Origin: Candidatus Saccharimonadota bacterium
GTDB lineage: Archaea; Micrarchaeota; Micrarchaeia; Micrarchaeales; Micrarchaeaceae
Length of the DNA stretch: 32,000 nucleotides
Direction of reading: 5' to 3'
NCBI GenBank assembly: GCA_963705375.1
Contig: OY970071.1
Location: 510,001-542,000, forward strand
In this document: in pieces, positions 11,293 to 29,272 of the stretch
Layout of the letters: every line of letters starts with the position of its first letter
Position numbering within the stretch: the first letter of the stretch is position 1
Notes under the pieces: generated by a model
Told to the model about the DNA's origin: nothing
The model's database searches: none
Seen by the model: only the letters and a program-made list of their open reading frames with translations
Made by a program: the position numbers and the translations under genes

Positions 11293-11313
11293 TTTGAGAT
11301 GCACAGCATATAT

Positions 11314-11575
11314 GTGGCAGATAGGCGGGAAGCCAAGGGTCTCCCATCCGCAAATCCCTTTTGGCGGGCCAATGCTGACAGCGTGCATCCGTGCGCTTGC
11401 AGAACTGTACTTAAGCGTTGAGGTTCTGCCTTAGGTGATGGCATATTATGCGAACCAGGCCAGGCCGGAAGGAGCAACCTTAAACACAATTTTGCCATGC
11501 TCTTAAGATACAGGACTAAGCAGATGTGCAGCACTTTGCATGCGTTAGGCTGTGCAATGCCAGCTTCTGCCACAT
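11314..11575 (+). ncRNA. signal recognition particle RNA (7S/SRP RNA), about 260 nt
   Basis: The conserved helix-8 core CCAGGCCGGAAGGAGCAACC (11461-11480) is present with a GGAA tetraloop at 11467-11470. The 5' GTGGCAGA (11314-11321) pairs perfectly with the 3' TCTGCCAC (11566-11573), closing the molecule. The 5' GGCGGG...CCGC is an Alu-domain-like hairpin. The ends are approximate (+/-10 nt). Confidence 0.8.
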
Positions 11576-11607: not shown

Positions 11608-11733
11608 GCTGGAGTCGCCTAGTGGTAAACTCTTAGGAGGCACGTAGCAACCTGAAGCTCACTAAAGGGCGGCAGCCCGCTAAGCTGTTTGGCCCGTATA
11701 GGGCCTCCGTGGGTTCGATTCCCACCTCCAGCG
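11608..11733 (+). tRNA. intron-containing type-II tRNA, best read as tRNA-Ser(GCU); predicted 39-nt intron in the D-loop (11627-11665)
   Basis: - The acceptor stem GCTGGAG/CTCCAGC is perfect, the discriminator is G, and no CCA is encoded.
- The T-arm is GTGGG-TTCGATT-CCCAC.
- A long variable arm GGCCC-GTATA-GGGCC is present.
- After removing 11627-11665 the D-arm becomes GCCT-AGTGGTA-GGGC.
- The anticodon arm is GCAGC-CCGCTAA-GCTGT, with the anticodon GCT at 11679-11681.
- The mature length would be 87 nt.
- Caveat: position 33 would be C rather than the near-universal U. Confidence 0.7.
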
Positions 11734-11781
11734 CTCATGCTTAACAATGACAGTATCCGGCTAGGTCAGGTGGAGTTCCAA
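11723..11781. repeat. direct repeat copy 1: tRNA 3' end core (CACCTCCAGCGCTCATGCTTA) plus the shared right arm
   Basis: 11723-11743 matches 13212-13231 and 13929-13948 apart from a 1-nt indel. 11744-11781 (AACAAT...AGTATCCGGCTAGGTCAGGTGGAGTTCCAA) matches 13232-13276. Confidence 0.85.
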
Positions 11782-13231
11782 GTGAGTTTCGGAGAGCAGG
11801 CACATCGGTACGACACCACCCATGCACTACATTAGCAAAGACGACAATGAGCGCTACAATAACATATACTATGCCTTCGGAAGCCAGCTAGCAAGTTTGA
11901 AGAAGGCGTTGGCAGAGCCACAAAATGGGCCTGCCCGATACGACACTATACGCCTACACATACCTTATATTCGCAGTATTTCTTTTAGTTTATCTGCCAG
12001 TGCGTCTCTTGCAGCTATCGTCGCATCGATATCTTCTTGCTCCACTGCGATTGGACCGTAACTGTTATTGCGGTTATTAGGCAGTCTTATTTCCATTCTC
12101 AATACTGGCTGACCCGCTACAACAAATCCGTCGGGTATGGTAACTTGCTTATCAGCACTATCCCAGTAGTATCTTGATCCCCATTCAGTGGCTCCGGACA
12201 TCAGCATATCCTTTGTTACTAATAGAGGAGTATAACGAGTGTGTGAGTCTGAACCACCTTTTAAATCATAGTTGGACCCTACTGAATTAATTTTGAATGA
12301 TACTTCGAAGATTCGGCCATTATACGTGAATGACGGAGGGGGCTGCAATGTATTATACTCTAACGTAGTATTGAATGTCTCGAATATTTGCGCATAAGGC
12401 GTAAGATCTATGTTGAACCAAAGCGAATCTACATTTGTGTATGTTACATAAACGATTGCACTATACAAAGCAGCGTGAGTATCCATAGACGTGCTCACCT
12501 CAGCCTCCACTTCATTTCCTACGTATGCTTGATTTATGCCAAGCACGTATTTTTCGTCGCATTTGGTGATATTAATACTTGTCTTGAAGAAGCTTGTCCC
12601 TAATGCTTCATATTCAAACCCACCGTCGAACAGCCGGGGGCTCCCATCGTTTTCTGCCTTACGCGCCTTTTCCATGATCATTGATGTGAGACTAGGTTTG
12701 TTTCTTGCATTAGCATCTGCACCTAACATCGCCACTGCCAAACCCATAATGCCATGTTCTTTAACAGTTTCGTCAAACAATTTCTCTGTAGGCTTCTCAG
12801 AACCAGCCAGTGTTCCGGTTTCAAACTTTCTTAATGCCGCGTCTACAGCGTCCAAGGTATCTAACACCACACCACCACTATGTTCGCTGGTGTGCAGCTC
12901 AAGCGGCCGCGATACTTCAGTAAAAGATTCCGGCATCTTTGAAGGTCGCTCTACAAATGTTTTCTGAGTGCTTGTCATTAAATCCACTAAGTAAATATTA
13001 GCACATTTCCAGATACTTATGCGCTTTGTTTTTGAGCAATTTATTTGCGAAAACTTGTGAAAATGTAACCTACCTCCGTCCGCCCAGTACGTGCGCTTCG
13101 CTTACGCAGGCGCAACAGCAACAACAGCACCATGAAGCTCAAAAAAGCATGGCACGATACAGACCGTCATAGTGCGATAGCGTCAGGGCACGGCGATTTA
13201 GCGTCGGTGTTCACCTCCAGCGCCATGCTTA
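11744..13231. mobile_element. cassette A: putative integrated, integrase-less element (about 1.5 kb) carrying one 340-aa ORF
   Basis: It is bounded by core copies 1 and 2. It starts with the shared right-arm sequence, ends with the shared about 140-nt left-arm sequence, and is lower in GC than the flanking core genes. Confidence 0.55.
11965..12987 (-). CDS. hypothetical protein, 340 aa, orphan (helical N-terminal third, beta-rich aromatic/Ser-Thr-rich C-terminal part)
   Basis: This is a long uninterrupted ORF in an AT-richer segment and the only substantial ORF between att-like cores 1 and 2. I recognise no family motif. Confidence 0.65.
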   Translation of the reverse strand: MDLMTSTQKTFVERPSKMPESFTEVSRPLELHTSEHSGGVVLDTLDAVDAALRKFETGTLAGSEKPTEKLFDETVKEHGIMGLAVAMLGADANARNKPSLTSMIMEKARKAENDGSPRLFDGGFEYEALGTSFFKTSINITKCDEKYVLGINQAYVGNEVEAEVSTSMDTHAALYSAIVYVTYTNVDSLWFNIDLTPYAQIFETFNTTLEYNTLQPPPSFTYNGRIFEVSFKINSVGSNYDLKGGSDSHTRYTPLLVTKDMLMSGATEWGSRYYWDSADKQVTIPDGFVVAGQPVLRMEIRLPNNRNNSYGPIAVEQEDIDATIAARDALADKLKEILRI

Positions 13232-13276
13232 ACAATATCTGATGATAGTATTCGGCTAGGTCAGATGGAGTTCCAA
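13074..13276. repeat. direct repeat copy 2: shared left arm, core, and shared right arm
   Basis: 13074-13231 aligns with 13790-13948; the last 66 nt (13166-13231 versus 13883-13948) are identical by eye, and the remainder is about 75% identical with indels. 13212-13276 aligns with 11723-11781. Confidence 0.85.
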
Positions 13277-13278
13277 AT

Positions 13279-13542
13279 TTACTTATAAGCTTGGCCACGC
13301 CACGATATGTCTGTTATCTCTATGCTCTCAGAATTCCAGAAAACTGCATAGAGTATGCGTATGTCTCCTATCCGCACCCTATATTCGCCCTCCCTTCCTT
13401 CCAACTTCTTGATGTCGTATAGCTCTGTAGGAACGGCATCTTCTTCAAGGGCCTTCAGCAACGCCTTCACACGTTTCTGATAATGAGAAGGCATCTTCAA
13501 TACAGACTTCTCAGCCCTTTTGGCGACTTTTATCAGATACAA
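13279..13542 (-). CDS. relE: type II toxin, RelE/ParE superfamily (87 aa)
   Basis: The sequence EGEYRVRIGDIRILYAVFWNSESIEITDISWRGQAY matches the RelE/ParE pattern Y.R.R.GDYR..Y.........I..I.HR..AY. The size fits, and the gene lies 4 nt downstream of a small partner ORF. Confidence 0.8.
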   Translation of the reverse strand: MYLIKVAKRAEKSVLKMPSHYQKRVKALLKALEEDAVPTELYDIKKLEGREGEYRVRIGDIRILYAVFWNSESIEITDISWRGQAYK

Positions 13543-13546
13543 AAGA

Positions 13547-13744
13547 TCAGCCCATCTTAGCTGTCAAATCCCTTCCACTTACCCACTTGCCTTTTGATAT
13601 CTCCTTCTTCCCCGCTTCCATTGCCTTGATATCCCTCTTAGTGGGTTTAACCGTAGACAAGACCATGGCCTTAAGCTTCTGGATCTCAACTTCTATCTGG
13701 CTGAGCTTCTTTAGCATGACCGTCTGCTGCTTTGAGAACACCAT
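13547..13744 (-). CDS. putative antitoxin (archaeal RelB-like, 65 aa)
   Basis: It sits immediately upstream of the RelE-like gene on the same strand. It is a small protein with a coiled-coil N-terminus, and its C-terminus (EAGKKEISKGKWVSGRDLTAKMG) resembles archaeal RelB-type antitoxins. Confidence 0.65.
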   Translation of the reverse strand: MVFSKQQTVMLKKLSQIEVEIQKLKAMVLSTVKPTKRDIKAMEAGKKEISKGKWVSGRDLTAKMG

Positions 13745-13789
13745 GATTACATAGCGACTCTTAAAGATATTAATTGTTTGCTTTTAACT

Positions 13790-13948
13790 CTCCTTCACGC
13801 CCAGCACGTGCGTTCGCTTGCGCAGACACAACAGCAGCCTGCAGCATCATGAAGCTCAAGAGAGCATAGCAAGATACAGACTGTCATAGTGCGATAGCGT
13901 CAGGGCACGGCGATTTAGCGTCGGTGTTCACCTCCAGCGCCATGCTTA
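13790..13948. repeat. direct repeat copy 3: shared left arm plus core (CACCTCCAGCGCCATGCTTA at 13929-13948)
   Basis: See copy 2. The sequence to the right of 13948 (TAGAACCGTTCC...) is unrelated to the right arm, as expected for a chromosomal flank or a different element. Confidence 0.85.
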
Positions 13949-14230: not shown

Positions 14231-15610
14231 ATGCAATTCGACAATAAGGACTTCCAAACCAATAACATTCAACCGCATTCGCTACTAAGGACAGGATCCG
14301 CATCAGATCTGAGCACTATTATTTCAGAAAAAATATGCTTTGAGATGCCTGTAGGTGTAAATTTCGAATCGAGTTCGTGGAAAGGAAGGCGCACGGCCCA
14401 GCAGTGGGATTTACAGAATGAAAAAGCAAAAACCTTGGGTATTCTTGTTGAAAAGGGATGGTTGGCAGCAGAGCCATTGGACGGCGACAGCATAGTGTAT
14501 CCTTCCAGGCAAGACGTCTTTAGGGGCGTGAATATCACAGTGCCTGGAACAGAAAATCCTGTCAAACAGTATCTTCTTGCGCGCACAATAGGCAAACCAA
14601 AGGCTGCTGCATATGAAAATAACGAAGGGGAAATCCCGCTAGTTACAGGATTGTGCCTATTCAGTAAATGCATGGCCTCCGCAATTACTGAGGATGATGA
14701 GACAGAATCCCTGGTGCTTTCATCTTCGCCAATAACAAAAAGAGTATCGCACATTGAAGTTAATAAGAATCCGTCCCTTTACGAGCTAGTAAGCGTTGCC
14801 CAGTTAGCATCTCTTATACTTGATATTGCAGACAACAACAAGGTCTCTGTGCACTTCAGCATACCTCGTGTTGAATACTACTTCTACATTTTGGATGCAG
14901 TGAAAGACGGCTACATGAGTAAGGAACAGGCTTCAGAGTGGTTCAAGTGCGTGGATGAGAGGCATGCCACTGTTGAGAGCATGCTTGTGAATACCATATG
15001 CAAAGTGAATAGCGAGGTAAACTTTGTTCACTGGGATCCTCTTGCGAAGTTGGGTGATTACATAGCCAATAGTGTCGAGGAGTGCAAGCAACCAGACATA
15101 GATGAGGCATTAGATATACTTGCCGATGGCGACAACGACAGCATATGGCGCTCCGCTGCAGTGAAAGAGACGATTATGGCGGGCAAATCTCCATGGATTG
15201 CGCTTGCCGACGTAAGCTGGACGATCCCATATATGGAGATAGGCACTGGTGACAAATTAGGTCTTGCAGTTGAGACTTATGATGAACAGCGACTATTAAC
15301 CGATGCAGCATCCCTGTCCAAGAAGATTCTAGCTGAGATGAATGTTGAGAAAAAGCTGAAGATGGCAGCAATATACAGCCATCCGTCTGTTGCGACAATC
15401 ACAGATGATGGAGGGAATAATCTGAAGTATAACCCAAGGTTATATCGTTCTGATGTGGATGTTACCGATCCATCCGAGATACGTGAGGTAATAAATAAGC
15501 TGTCTGTGCTTTACGGTGTAGAAGTAGTCCTGGATGGCCCTTCACAATCAGAAACAGTCTTGAAGGATCCTTCAGCCTACCAGGCGCTGTTGAGGAAAGG
15601 AGAAGACTAG
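14231..15610 (+). CDS. hypothetical protein, 459 aa, orphan; first gene of a two-gene unit with DUF917
   Basis: This is a long ORF in the lower-GC island. Its stop (TAG, 15608-15610) is 1 nt before the ATG of the next gene. I could assign no motif, and it has no TM segment or signal peptide. Confidence 0.7.
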   Translation: MQFDNKDFQTNNIQPHSLLRTGSASDLSTIISEKICFEMPVGVNFESSSWKGRRTAQQWDLQNEKAKTLGILVEKGWLAAEPLDGDSIVYPSRQDVFRGVNITVPGTENPVKQYLLARTIGKPKAAAYENNEGEIPLVTGLCLFSKCMASAITEDDETESLVLSSSPITKRVSHIEVNKNPSLYELVSVAQLASLILDIADNNKVSVHFSIPRVEYYFYILDAVKDGYMSKEQASEWFKCVDERHATVESMLVNTICKVNSEVNFVHWDPLAKLGDYIANSVEECKQPDIDEALDILADGDNDSIWRSAAVKETIMAGKSPWIALADVSWTIPYMEIGTGDKLGLAVETYDEQRLLTDAASLSKKILAEMNVEKKLKMAAIYSHPSVATITDDGGNNLKYNPRLYRSDVDVTDPSEIREVINKLSVLYGVEVVLDGPSQSETVLKDPSAYQALLRKGED

Positions 15611-15611
15611 C

Positions 15612-16649
15612 ATGAAAATCCGTTTGACAAACGACATTCTGGCAGATATGATAGTTGGCTCTTCAATATATTCCACGGGCGGCGGCACTGAGTTATCTTT
15701 GCAACGAAAGCTGCTGCAGGGGTTGAAAGGCAACGCCAAGCCAAAGCTTATTTCGATAGACGAGCTGAAGGATAGTGATTATATCTGTACGGCATATAGT
15801 GTCGGAGCAACTGCAAACACAGGCACAGATATTACGCTCGTGCTAAGGAGCGCGATGGAAGAGATAGAGTCGCTCGTAAATAAAAAAATGTCAGCAATAT
15901 TTGCAGGCGAAACCAACATAGACGCACGAGTGTTTTTATTGGCAAGCAGTATGCGACTTCCGGTAGTGGATGGTGATGCTACTGGAGGGAGGGCAGTGCC
16001 CCTGATCCAAATCGATAACTTCAATGTGCTCGGAAAAAAATCCCTTCCACTGTGTGCCGTAAACTCGGATAATGAGAGAATTATTCTGAAGGATGGCAAC
16101 TTCGACGATGCAGAAAATGAGGTAACGAAGCTTGCAGCCAAATCAAAGGGCTCAGTAGGCGTAGTAGATCATTCTGTAAGCGTAGCAGATGCGAAGAAAG
16201 CGTTGACTCTTGGTATCTTCAAGCGTTCATTGGAAACTGGAAAGTTCATAAGAGAAAATCGGAAGAAGCTAGAAAAAGATGTATCGCCTTTAGTAACGCG
16301 CATAAAAGGAAGAGTTGTCATAGAAGGCACTGTGTCTGACGTTTCATTAAGCAGATCTGCGCGATTTCTGGAAGGACACTACACAATCCAGGGCAATAAT
16401 GGCAAACAACTCAAGGTCTATGTCCAGAATGAGAATATTGCGTGCTGGTTGGATGGTAGGATGGTCATAGCACCGCCGGATTCTATAATAACAATAGACT
16501 TGAACGAACTGATAGGGGTGCACAACAGCAAAATCTATAAAGGGGAGAAAGTGTGCGTTGTGGGCAAAAGGGCCTCTAAACTCTGGAGGACCGCTACGGG
16601 CATTAAAGTGTTCGGCCCAAAAACATTCAAATTGAAAAGTTCACTCTGA
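15612..16649 (+). CDS. DUF917 family protein
   Basis: DUF917 hallmarks are present: STGGG near the N-terminus, LPVVDGDATGGRAVP (compare PVVDxDxxGRAFP), and C-terminal YVQNENIACWLDGRMVIAPPDSI...VCVVGKRASKLWRTATGIKVFGPKTF. Confidence 0.8.
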   Translation: MKIRLTNDILADMIVGSSIYSTGGGTELSLQRKLLQGLKGNAKPKLISIDELKDSDYICTAYSVGATANTGTDITLVLRSAMEEIESLVNKKMSAIFAGETNIDARVFLLASSMRLPVVDGDATGGRAVPLIQIDNFNVLGKKSLPLCAVNSDNERIILKDGNFDDAENEVTKLAAKSKGSVGVVDHSVSVADAKKALTLGIFKRSLETGKFIRENRKKLEKDVSPLVTRIKGRVVIEGTVSDVSLSRSARFLEGHYTIQGNNGKQLKVYVQNENIACWLDGRMVIAPPDSIITIDLNELIGVHNSKIYKGEKVCVVGKRASKLWRTATGIKVFGPKTFKLKSSL

Positions 16650-28114: not shown

Positions 28115-28160
28115 AAAGAATGAAAGAAAGAGGAAAAGAAAGGCAACTGTTCAAGTTGCC
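28115..28160 (-). terminator. hairpin plus T-rich tract terminating pilin gene 1
   Basis: On the mRNA, GGCAAC-UUGAACA-GUUGCC (28142-28160) carries the stop codon UGA in the loop. It is followed by UUUCUUUUCCUCUUUCUUUC. Confidence 0.55.
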
Positions 28161-28627
28161 TTCACACTGAGCGAAGCAAGTTGCACGCACAAGCCGTTCA
28201 CTGTTGCTGTGTTGTAGCCCGCCCATAATGTCCCGCTAAAAGATGCACCAACAGTTGTCGGTAGTCCTTGAAACCTTGTTGGACCCGAACCGCCTGATGC
28301 GATAGGTAAGGGAGATGGAGGTATGCTATTCACCGCCGAAGCACAGCCAGTCGTACCTGTCGGATCGAGATAGAGACCAGTAAGTAGCCATGCTTGTCCC
28401 GTGGCCTGACCTATCTCGACTATCGTCAGATTGCCGTTGTGCAACACCGGACCGGAGCACGTGAACCCAGCGAGAGGTATGCACGCTGTGCTCAGAGATG
28501 CCCCTGAGTTGAACACTCCCAACGAGAACAGGGACGCTAGTACCACGGCAATTATCAGAATGGCCCATCCATAGGTCATCAGATATTCCATGGCCGATTG
28601 TGCCTTTAACTGCATTCTGGCGGACAT
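28151..28627 (-). CDS. archaeal type IV pilin-like protein with a class III signal peptide (158 aa)
   Basis: The N-terminus MSARMQLKAQSAMEYLMTYGWAILIIAVVLASLF has the class III signal pattern (a basic region, then Q.S.EYL plus a hydrophobic helix). It is a paralogue of 28772-29236. Confidence 0.85.
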   Translation of the reverse strand: MSARMQLKAQSAMEYLMTYGWAILIIAVVLASLFSLGVFNSGASLSTACIPLAGFTCSGPVLHNGNLTIVEIGQATGQAWLLTGLYLDPTGTTGCASAVNSIPPSPLPIASGGSGPTRFQGLPTTVGASFSGTLWAGYNTATVNGLCVQLASLSVKAT

Positions 28628-28654
28628 GTAAATCGGTTATATAGCAGTGCCAAG

Positions 28655-28662
28655 GTTTAAAT
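28655..28662 (-). promoter_or_regulatory. putative TATA box of pilin gene 1
   Basis: The minus strand reads CATTTAAACC about 27-36 nt upstream of the ATG at 28627. It is conserved upstream of pilin gene 2. Confidence 0.45.
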
Positions 28663-28721
28663 GATTAGTGTCAGTTGGAGTTCGAAATCTGGCGCGATAA
28701 ACCTATCACACAGTGAGGGTA

Positions 28722-28781
28722 TGAGAAATAAAAAAGGAAAAGAGGAAAAGAAAGAAAGGAAAGGCAACTGTTCAGGTTGCC
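28722..28781 (-). terminator. hairpin plus T-rich tract terminating pilin gene 2
   Basis: GGCAAC-CUGAACA-GUUGCC (28763-28781) carries the stop codon in the loop and is followed by a long U/C-rich tract. It is homologous to the element at 28115-28160. Confidence 0.55.
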
Positions 28782-29236
28782 TTCAGGCTGAGTGAAGCCA
28801 TCTGCACGCACAAGCCGTTCACTGTTTGCGTGTTGTAGCTAGCCCATATTGTTCCGCTGTCGGATGCACCTATAGATGAGGGTAGTCCTCCGAATAATGC
28901 TGATTCAGAACCACCAGATGCAAGGTCTGCGATAGAATCGTTTGCAGTAGAGGCGCAGCCTGTTGAACCTGTCGGGTCAAAATATGCGGTAATGCCCGTC
29001 CATGCACTGCCTGTAGCCTGACCTACGGTTATTGTCAAGTTACCCTGGTGCAACACAGGCCCGTAGCATGTGAACCCCGCGAGAGGTATGCACGAAGTGC
29101 TTAGAGAAGCCCCTGAGTTGAACACTCCCAACGCGAACAGGGACGCTAGTACCACGGCAATTATCAGAATGGCCCATCCATAGGTCATCAGATATTCCAT
29201 GGCCGATTGTGCCTTTAACTGCATTCTTATGGACAT
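28772..29236 (-). CDS. archaeal type IV pilin-like protein with a class III signal peptide (154 aa)
   Basis: The N-terminus MSIRMQLKAQSAMEYLMTYGWAILIIAVVLASLF is present. The first about 60 aa and the last about 20 aa are nearly identical to the protein encoded at 28151-28627. Confidence 0.85.
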   Translation of the reverse strand: MSIRMQLKAQSAMEYLMTYGWAILIIAVVLASLFALGVFNSGASLSTSCIPLAGFTCYGPVLHQGNLTITVGQATGSAWTGITAYFDPTGSTGCASTANDSIADLASGGSESALFGGLPSSIGASDSGTIWASYNTQTVNGLCVQMASLSLKAT

Positions 29237-29263
29237 GTAAATCGTCCATATAGCTATACTAAG

Positions 29264-29272
29264 ATTTAAATA
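29264..29272 (-). promoter_or_regulatory. putative TATA box of pilin gene 2
   Basis: The minus strand reads TATTTAAAT about 28-36 nt upstream of the ATG at 29236. Confidence 0.45.

Follow-up and report, generated by a model that had tools for sequence, protein, structure and literature searches.

Stand-alone enzymes that derive from aminoacyl-tRNA synthetases (aaRS), such as the cyclodipeptide synthases (CDPS), are rare and rich sources of new chemistry. CDPS (AlbC, Rv2275, YvmC) are built on the class Ic aaRS scaffold without the HIGH and KMSKS motifs. Their core holds a small nucleophile in a G-x-S motif together with a conserved Tyr and Glu, as seen in our CDPS alignment (A5). DUF917 genes are usually described beside ATP-dependent partners of the hydantoinase/oxoprolinase type. 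They are also enriched in cyclodipeptide-oxidase clusters that lack a CDPS, and a hydantoinase-like ring hydrolysis has been suggested for their products (bioRxiv 10.1101/2023.09.25.559410). The only solved DUF917 relative, PDB 2o3i, was deposited as a 'hypothetical protein'. Here we describe a gene pair, X and D, in a 32,000-nt stretch of DNA (the window) that spans positions 510,001 to 542,000 of contig OY970071.1 (assembly GCA_963705375.1), from a member of the Micrarchaeota by its GTDB lineage. Gene X belongs to an unannotated family that, judged by a predicted structure, resembles the class Ic aaRS/CDPS scaffold without its ATP-binding motifs, and gene D encodes a DUF917 protein. No description of this pairing was found in the literature searched. 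The elements of the pair are as follows.

14231 to 15610, plus strand: gene X, 459 aa, ATG start, from the list of open reading frames (ORFs)
15612 to 16649, plus strand: gene D, 345 aa, ATG start, DUF917/S-Me-THD-like
15596 to 15611, plus strand: X/D junction with the Shine-Dalgarno-like GGAAAGGAGAAG, the X stop codon TAG (15608 to 15610) and a 1-nt spacer, by sequence reading

The two ORFs and the 1-nt gap between them are present in the sequence as the initial annotation had claimed. The stop codon of X is followed by a single nucleotide (c) and then by the ATG of D at 15612, and the Shine-Dalgarno-like stretch just 5' of the D start is rich in purines. The proposed translational coupling is plausible and recurrent, with X and D overlapping by 4 nt in 6 of 11 adjacent pairs at homologous loci. 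A public gene call starts X at Met39 (nt 14345), which gives a protein of 421 aa. Both starts are possible, since residues 1-28 are predicted to be disordered and homology to other family members begins near residue 65. In the window, X has a pI of 4.8 and a net charge of -23 (strongly acidic), and D has a pI of 9.4 (basic). The median pI is 6.3 in the X family and 7.6 in the D family, so this charge complementarity is specific to the window genome.

The initial annotation regarded the 459-aa protein as an orphan with no placeable motif. Sequence searches of Pfam, NCBIfam and the PDB with X indeed gave no match. The orphan label is refuted by an exhaustive HMMER search of 1.84 billion cluster representatives (50% clustering), which found 186 representatives related to X at E<=1e-3 and 69 at E<=1e-10. 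Only this exhaustive search found the family; word-indexed homology searches, with X alone or with a 65-sequence alignment, returned X plus one member. Pattern scans gave just five loci in GTDB genomes and three in metagenomes, as no long peptide stretch is conserved in the family. Most members are about 400 aa long and align to X residues ~130-400. A Pfam scan of 65 members gave no match, including none to tRNA-synt_1b or CDPS, and a PDB profile search with the family alignment gave nothing significant. The same Pfam scan of 10 unusually long members gave neither a match nor an informative fusion domain. N-terminal extensions of 250-500 aa without a Pfam match occur in some members (P0091, 883 aa; P0157, 695 aa; P0100, 655 aa; locus L016, 598-3249).

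Conservation within the family was read from an alignment of 92 sequences with about 20-25% identity to X. Two residues, C142 and E185, are invariant. The cysteine lies in a G140-x-C-L-F144 motif, and at least 90% conservation is found at G140, L143, F144, Y184, R191, P212, Y216, W237, V241, R244, Y330, E352 and Y405. The conserved core is rich in aromatic residues (9 of the 24 most conserved columns) and includes two Arg beside the Cys and Glu. The alignment holds no conserved His or Lys column. A regular-expression search found a HIGH-like string in 2 of the 92 members and a KMSKS-like string in one.

The fold of X was predicted with AlphaFold2 (AF2) from the 92-sequence alignment. The model has a mean predicted local distance difference test score (pLDDT) of 84.5 and a predicted template-modelling score of 0.86, and its core from ~60 to 430 is mostly above a pLDDT of 90. 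In this model, G140-x-C142 comes after a strand formed by residues 134-139. When the model was compared with the PDB by Foldseek, the best 50 matches were all tyrosyl- or tryptophanyl-tRNA synthetases (TyrRS/TrpRS), with probabilities of 0.66-1.0, mostly >0.9. The top match was TrpRS of A. pernix (3a04, E=2e-4). In the BFVD library, ranks 1-2 were giant-virus TyrRS (probability 0.99), and rank 3 was a phage cyclodileucine synthase, a CDPS (probability 0.75). The structural comparison suggested by the initial annotation therefore points to a class Ic aaRS-like fold. A separate AF2 model of X from the single sequence had a pLDDT of 31 and was discarded.

These features allow X to be set against the known systems. 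Class Ic aaRS (TyrRS/TrpRS, Pfam tRNA-synt_1b) are the best and sole consistent fold matches of X in two libraries, and the X family is tied to a trp operon and a TrpRS gene. The family differs from them in having no Pfam or profile match and no HIGH or KMSKS. Like CDPS, X would be a stand-alone enzyme on a class Ic aaRS scaffold without these two motifs, and its G-x-C, invariant Glu and conserved Tyr may be the counterpart of the CDPS core. It differs from CDPS in that the putative nucleophile is Cys instead of Ser and in the spacing of the conserved residues. The arrangement also resembles the pairs of DUF917 with ASKHA hydantoinases or oxoprolinases, in which a DUF917 gene is coupled to a larger, possibly nucleotide-binding partner. 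X has neither the motif nor the fold of such a partner. As the initial annotation had stated, a DxGG[TS] motif of the ASKHA phosphate-binding type is not found in the X sequence, and no ASKHA fold was seen among the listed top 50 matches of the X model in the PDB or BFVD. The suggestion that this is a different kind of DUF917 partnership is thus borne out by the missing motif and by the aaRS-like fold prediction. Profile searches assigned X to no well-known family that accompanies DUF917, and an aaRS-like family is no known DUF917 companion.

The pairing of X with D is a recurrent one. In the contigs of D relatives, a Pfam-less gene for 395-486 aa lies immediately upstream on the same strand in four of four cases, and these upstream proteins are homologous to X (BLASTP E 3e-34 and 5e-20). 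A neighbourhood survey, of the kind that the initial annotation had recommended, covered 16 distinct loci that carry an X homologue, window included. X is directly followed by a member of the D subfamily, on the same strand, in 11 of them.

X directly 5' of D, same strand (11 loci): window, L001, L003, L004, L005, L007, L013, L014, L015, L016, L019
X and D 2.7 kb apart, same strand: L018
X without D: L009, L010, L017, L020

The named hosts of the X family are bacteria of the candidate phyla radiation (CPR), namely Pacebacteria, Levyibacteriota and Peribacteria, and a Micrarchaeota metagenome-assembled genome (MAG). L015 is a second archaeal contig and encodes aRF1, and two MAGs are labelled Bacteroidota. 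In a rough neighbour-joining tree, the high-GC, partner-less members of L017 and L020 form the outgroup. The partner-less members of L009 and L010 are nested within the D-linked clade, which suggests a secondary loss of D at these two loci. The X proteins of the three archaeal loci fall apart in the tree, which hints at repeated transfer between domains, but the branches are long. At L015 (6305-7331), the DUF917 gene 3' of X is split into overlapping ORFs of 265 aa and 92 aa, as a result of a frameshift, pseudogene formation or an assembly error.

A third gene often accompanies the pair. Genes for M20 metallohydrolases are linked in five loci (L003, L004, L013, L016, L019). A PepT-like M20 gene lies immediately 3' of D in three of these, overlapping the end of D in L013 and L016 and following it after a 15-nt gap in L019. 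The three proteins are mutual orthologues with 50-60% identity; with the TIGR01883 model (cut-off 274), two of them reach 264 and 282 bits. L003 has one ArgE/DapE-like M20 gene downstream of D, and L004 has four tandem ArgE/DapE-like copies upstream. By its gene order, the X-D pair, often extended by M20, appears to form a conserved operon in tiny symbiotic bacteria and archaea.

Other neighbours are also suggestive. In a Peribacteria MAG (L010, CAYWJU010000003.1, 360-5272), X has no DUF917 partner and lies in the order trpC-trpF-trpB-trpA-X-trpR-like. In L019 (GCA_030646805.1, 1-5258), a canonical TrpRS gene, which has GKLHLGH and KMSKS motifs, comes directly after X, D and the PepT-like M20 gene. 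X, which has 695 aa and a long N-terminal extension at this locus, is thus not the TrpRS of the cell. Genes for an ACT-domain protein and an aminotransferase lie near X and D in L018. Two distant members occur without DUF917, one in L020 (400-3145) adjacent to a Ddl-like ATP-grasp ligase gene and the other in L017 (4418-7243, GC 71%) adjacent to a chorismate-lyase-like gene and genes for EamA and MFS transporters. From their gene content, these two loci from high-GC bacteria look like small biosynthetic clusters. An EamA exporter gene is found in L013 as well as in L017. In CPR genomes, the X-D pair lies amid housekeeping genes, e.g., those for aaRS, MurB and FtsH. Overall, the recurring neighbours point to amino-acid or tryptophan metabolism.

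D itself is a clear DUF917 member, as the initial annotation had it. It matches Pfam S-Me-THD_N (PF06032; 3e-20, 73.3 bits) and S-Me-THD_C (PF20906; 4e-35, 121.3 bits) near full length, both above the gathering score of 27 bits, and its profile matches 2o3i at 7e-33. The further statement that DUF917 has no established biochemical role is outdated at the level of the superfamily. Pfam names the domains S-Me-THD-like, and NCBIfam holds equivalog models for S-methyl thiohydantoin desulfurase and thiohydantoin desulfurase (NF058532, NF058529). D scores 77.9 bits against a cut-off of 450 and 69.5 against 440 with these models. Because these scores are far below the cut-offs, D is neither of the two desulfurases. 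An alignment of 43 sequences (A6), which joins the D subfamily with distant DUF917 proteins, shows that D keeps all 14 superfamily-invariant residues (G23-G-G25, G65, E100, D120, R127, A128, P130, G210, G239, N273, E274, P289), and D is therefore probably catalytically competent. Identity is 36-48% within the D subfamily and 21-31% to other DUF917 proteins, and the closest DUF917 match of D comes from a Micrarchaeota MAG. D shares both domains and all invariant residues with the superfamily; by these identities it falls into a DUF917 subfamily of its own, marked by the aaRS-like partner.

These observations lead us to a tentative reading, to which we give somewhat less than an even chance. The X-D module, extended by M20 in many genomes, would act on a small molecule derived from an amino acid or a peptide, and would combine an aaRS-derived acyl- or aminoacyl-transfer enzyme that uses a Cys nucleophile with a DUF917 ring amidohydrolase. 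X would no longer adenylate an amino acid. Instead, Cys142 may hold an aminoacyl or acyl group as a thioester. The group could be taken from an aminoacyl-tRNA, as CDPS do by means of Ser, or from another activated donor, and the substrate is perhaps aromatic or related to tryptophan. D would then close or open an amide- or ureide-type ring on the intermediate or product of X. Where present, the PepT-like or ArgE/DapE-like M20 enzyme may cleave the last amide bond. Such a module points to an undescribed amino-acid or peptide pathway. In a bolder form of this proposal, which we regard as doubtful, aaRS-derived, ATP-independent enzymes would have arisen independently for a second time as family X, whose members would hijack an aminoacyl-tRNA (possibly Trp-tRNA) through a Cys thioester. 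The dedicated DUF917 partner of this family would cyclise or otherwise ring-process the product, in a new tRNA-dependent pathway typical of CPR and DPANN and exchanged between the domains.

Several results weigh against the acyl-transfer proposal. The fold matches of X have low TM-scores (0.25-0.40) and root-mean-square deviations of 8-9 A, so the likeness to aaRS is distant or partial, or the domains are rearranged, and does not extend over the whole chain. Profile comparisons by hhalign were not significant between the X family and TyrRS/TrpRS (E=0.18 and 0.61, with M. jannaschii TyrRS and a four-sequence class Ic mini-profile as references). They were also not significant between the X alignment (A3) and the four-sequence CDPS profile (A5), with E=0.54. 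X-family proteins of ~400 aa are longer than CDPS, which have about 230-290 aa. Two aaRS alignments put G-x-C-L-F in different registers. Owing to this conflict, no aaRS element (HIGH, KMSKS or the amino-acid pocket) is assigned to the motif or to Cys142, and the idea of Cys142 as a substitute for the first HIGH His or the KMSKS Lys was dropped. The pI values of X, 4.8 in the window and 6.3 as the family median, give no support for tRNA binding. Window X is also a divergent member that departs from the family consensus, in that Q replaces the conserved R191 and W the conserved Y330. The tryptophan link is based on two loci, and the proximity of aaRS genes to X may be due to chance, as such genes are often neighbours where genomes are small.

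Four other explanations have to be weighed against the acyl-transfer proposal. One is that X, in spite of its degenerate motifs, has remained an aaRS-like ligase that adenylates with ATP, activates a carboxylate or an amino acid and provides energy coupling for DUF917 in the way of the ASKHA hydantoinase-A-type ATPases. The predicted scaffold of X is the nucleotide-binding one of class I aaRS, the described partners of DUF917 are usually ATP-dependent, and an ATP-grasp ligase gene adjoins the partner-less X of L020. The near absence of HIGH- and KMSKS-like strings from the family and the lack of a conserved His or Lys column speak against adenylation. What the family has kept is an invariant Cys and Glu, which are not phosphate-binding residues, and we consider this explanation unlikely. 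The module could also belong to a salvage or catabolic route in which D opens a hydantoin-, diketopiperazine- or lactam-type ring and M20 frees an amino acid for auxotrophic symbionts. X would be a binding, isomerising (by Cys/Glu acid-base chemistry) or specificity subunit. Such a role would suit the annotation of DUF917 superfamily members as thiohydantoin desulfurases and the suggestion that they are hydantoinase-like. It would also suit the M20 genes linked in five loci and the small genomes of the CPR and DPANN hosts. It leaves unexplained why an obligatory aaRS-derived partner with an invariant Cys is needed; M20 is absent from more than half of the loci, window included, and the best M20 match is to a tripeptidase-like model and not to a carbamoylase. 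This route is distinctly unlikely.

The loss of the aaRS signature motifs would also suit an aaRS-derived pseudoenzyme without catalytic activity, which would serve D as a scaffold or regulator, for instance as a sensor of tryptophan or of uncharged tRNA. The trp-operon and TrpRS links and the complementary charges of X and D in the window agree with this. A pseudoenzyme would hardly be expected to keep some 20 near-invariant positions, in addition to the invariant Cys and Glu, at ~20-25% identity, a pattern that resembles an active site, and X occurs without D in four loci; we take this explanation to be very unlikely. Finally, the ParE cassette upstream in the window, the PIN/RHH pair upstream in L015 and the BglII endonuclease gene downstream in L005 could suggest a defence or toxin-type accessory system. 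This is improbable in the extreme, as PADLOC gave no match for X, D or their neighbours, the pair lies amid housekeeping genes in CPR genomes, and its links to M20, trp and aminotransferase genes point to metabolism.

The surroundings of the pair in the window bear on its origin. Genes in the window for an S4e-type ribosomal operon, diphthamide synthase, Rad50, FtsZ, a presenilin-type signal peptide peptidase and an archaeal signal recognition particle (SRP) RNA mark the host as an archaeon. Its contig of 1.21 Mb suggests a small genome, and the closest match of D suggests that it is probably DPANN/Micrarchaeota-like. The initial annotation had placed X and D in a low-GC island. Such an island exists but is moderate: both genes have a GC content of 0.45, and GC at third codon positions (GC3) is 0.46-0.47, as compared with 0.59-0.69 in the core genes of the window. 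Similarly low GC3 is found in the orphan 340-aa gene listed below (0.40) and in orf63 (0.42). The features upstream of X are the following.

11312 to 11575, plus strand: divergent archaeal SRP RNA (RF01857, 83.7 bits, E=4e-18, under the gathering score of 96.5)
~11608 to 11733, plus strand: probable intron-containing type II tRNA, the integration target of the cassettes, by sequence reading
11746 to 13948, no strand assigned: two tandem cassettes, each closed by a copy of the tRNA 3' end (13212 to 13231 and 13929 to 13948)
Cassette A (about 1.5 kb): orphan 340-aa gene, 11965 to 12987, minus strand
Cassette B (about 0.7 kb): ParE gene with a Pfam match, 13279 to 13542, and antitoxin-like ORF, 13547 to 13744, both minus strand

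At the gathering threshold, the SRP RNA region gives just a 98-nt piece (11422-11519) named 'Bacteria_small_SRP' with 40.7 bits. The evidence for this tRNA consists of a manual reading, a weakly scoring Rfam match of the tRNA-Sec type (27 bits, E=0.035) and the copies of its 3' end; no tRNA was reported for the window by ARAGORN, whether or not introns were allowed, or by Rfam at the gathering threshold. The element has an acceptor stem GCUGGAG/CUCCAGC, a T arm GUGGG-UUCGAUU-CCCAC and a long variable arm. It is ~125 nt long, with about 35-40 extra nucleotides that are apparently a non-canonical intron, and it is possibly a tRNA-Ser. An exact 20-mer, CACCTCCAGCGCCATGCTTA, which comprises the tRNA 3' end and trailer, makes up both cassette-closing copies, with 0 expected by chance. 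A 12-mer of this repeat is present three times, including in the tRNA (11723, 13212 and 13929). The two cassettes also resemble each other at both ends: a 107-nt end segment recurs at 13125-13231 and 13842-13948 (94%), as does a 35-nt start segment at 11747-11781 and 13242-13276 (91%). Neither cassette contains an integrase gene. Farther away in the window (28133-29271), two tandem repeat units of ~600 nt, 78-89% identical, correspond to paralogous genes at 28151-28627 and 28772-29236, both on the minus strand.

The repeated tRNA 3' end, which brackets two cassettes, shows that the tRNA-linked cassettes named in the initial annotation exist. The X-D pair itself starts 283 nt after the last copy. 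There is no copy of the tRNA 3' end beyond D, so the pair lies just outside the bracketed region, unlike cassettes A and B. The pair is an older insertion whose boundary has decayed, or it simply adjoins the hotspot. A comparison of gene tables with a close relative, whose ribosomal protein S5 has an identity of 90% or more, revealed the same gene order from DUF373 through the ribosomal operon to Endo_dU and DUF192. In the relative, DUF192 is followed by an SRP RNA/tRNA gap of ~530 nt and then by genes for a ParA-like ATPase, a 701-aa CARDB/lactonase-like protein and a 511-aa protein; X, D, ParE and the DnaJ gene are not present at this locus. The pair is thus not conserved at the locus, on the point that the initial annotation had singled out for checking. 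The archaeal loci also differ in their surroundings, with the BglII endonuclease gene in L005 and the PIN/RHH pair in L015. Since other genes occupy the locus of the relative and the other archaeal loci have different neighbourhoods, X-D is accessory in the lineage of the window. These findings, together with the atypical GC3 and the adjoining tRNA cassettes, agree with the initial annotation that the pair is an accessory function of probable horizontal origin, and X-D is probably a horizontally acquired insertion beside a tRNA integration hotspot.

X falls outside aaRS by its motifs and profiles and outside CDPS by its profiles and size while sharing their predicted scaffold, and D is a DUF917 protein that is no known desulfurase. 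An uncharacterised family of at least 186 sequence clusters can now be given a predicted fold, Cys142/Glu185 as its candidate active site, and a fixed partner. The compact two- or three-gene module X-D-M20 also provides a new handle on DUF917, a superfamily in which the searches showed named enzyme models just for the thiohydantoin desulfurases. The X family is apparently moving between bacteria and archaea. A further aaRS-derived lineage of stand-alone enzymes, concentrated in the metabolically minimal symbionts of CPR and DPANN, would be relevant to the ways in which they acquire or alter amino acids and peptides.

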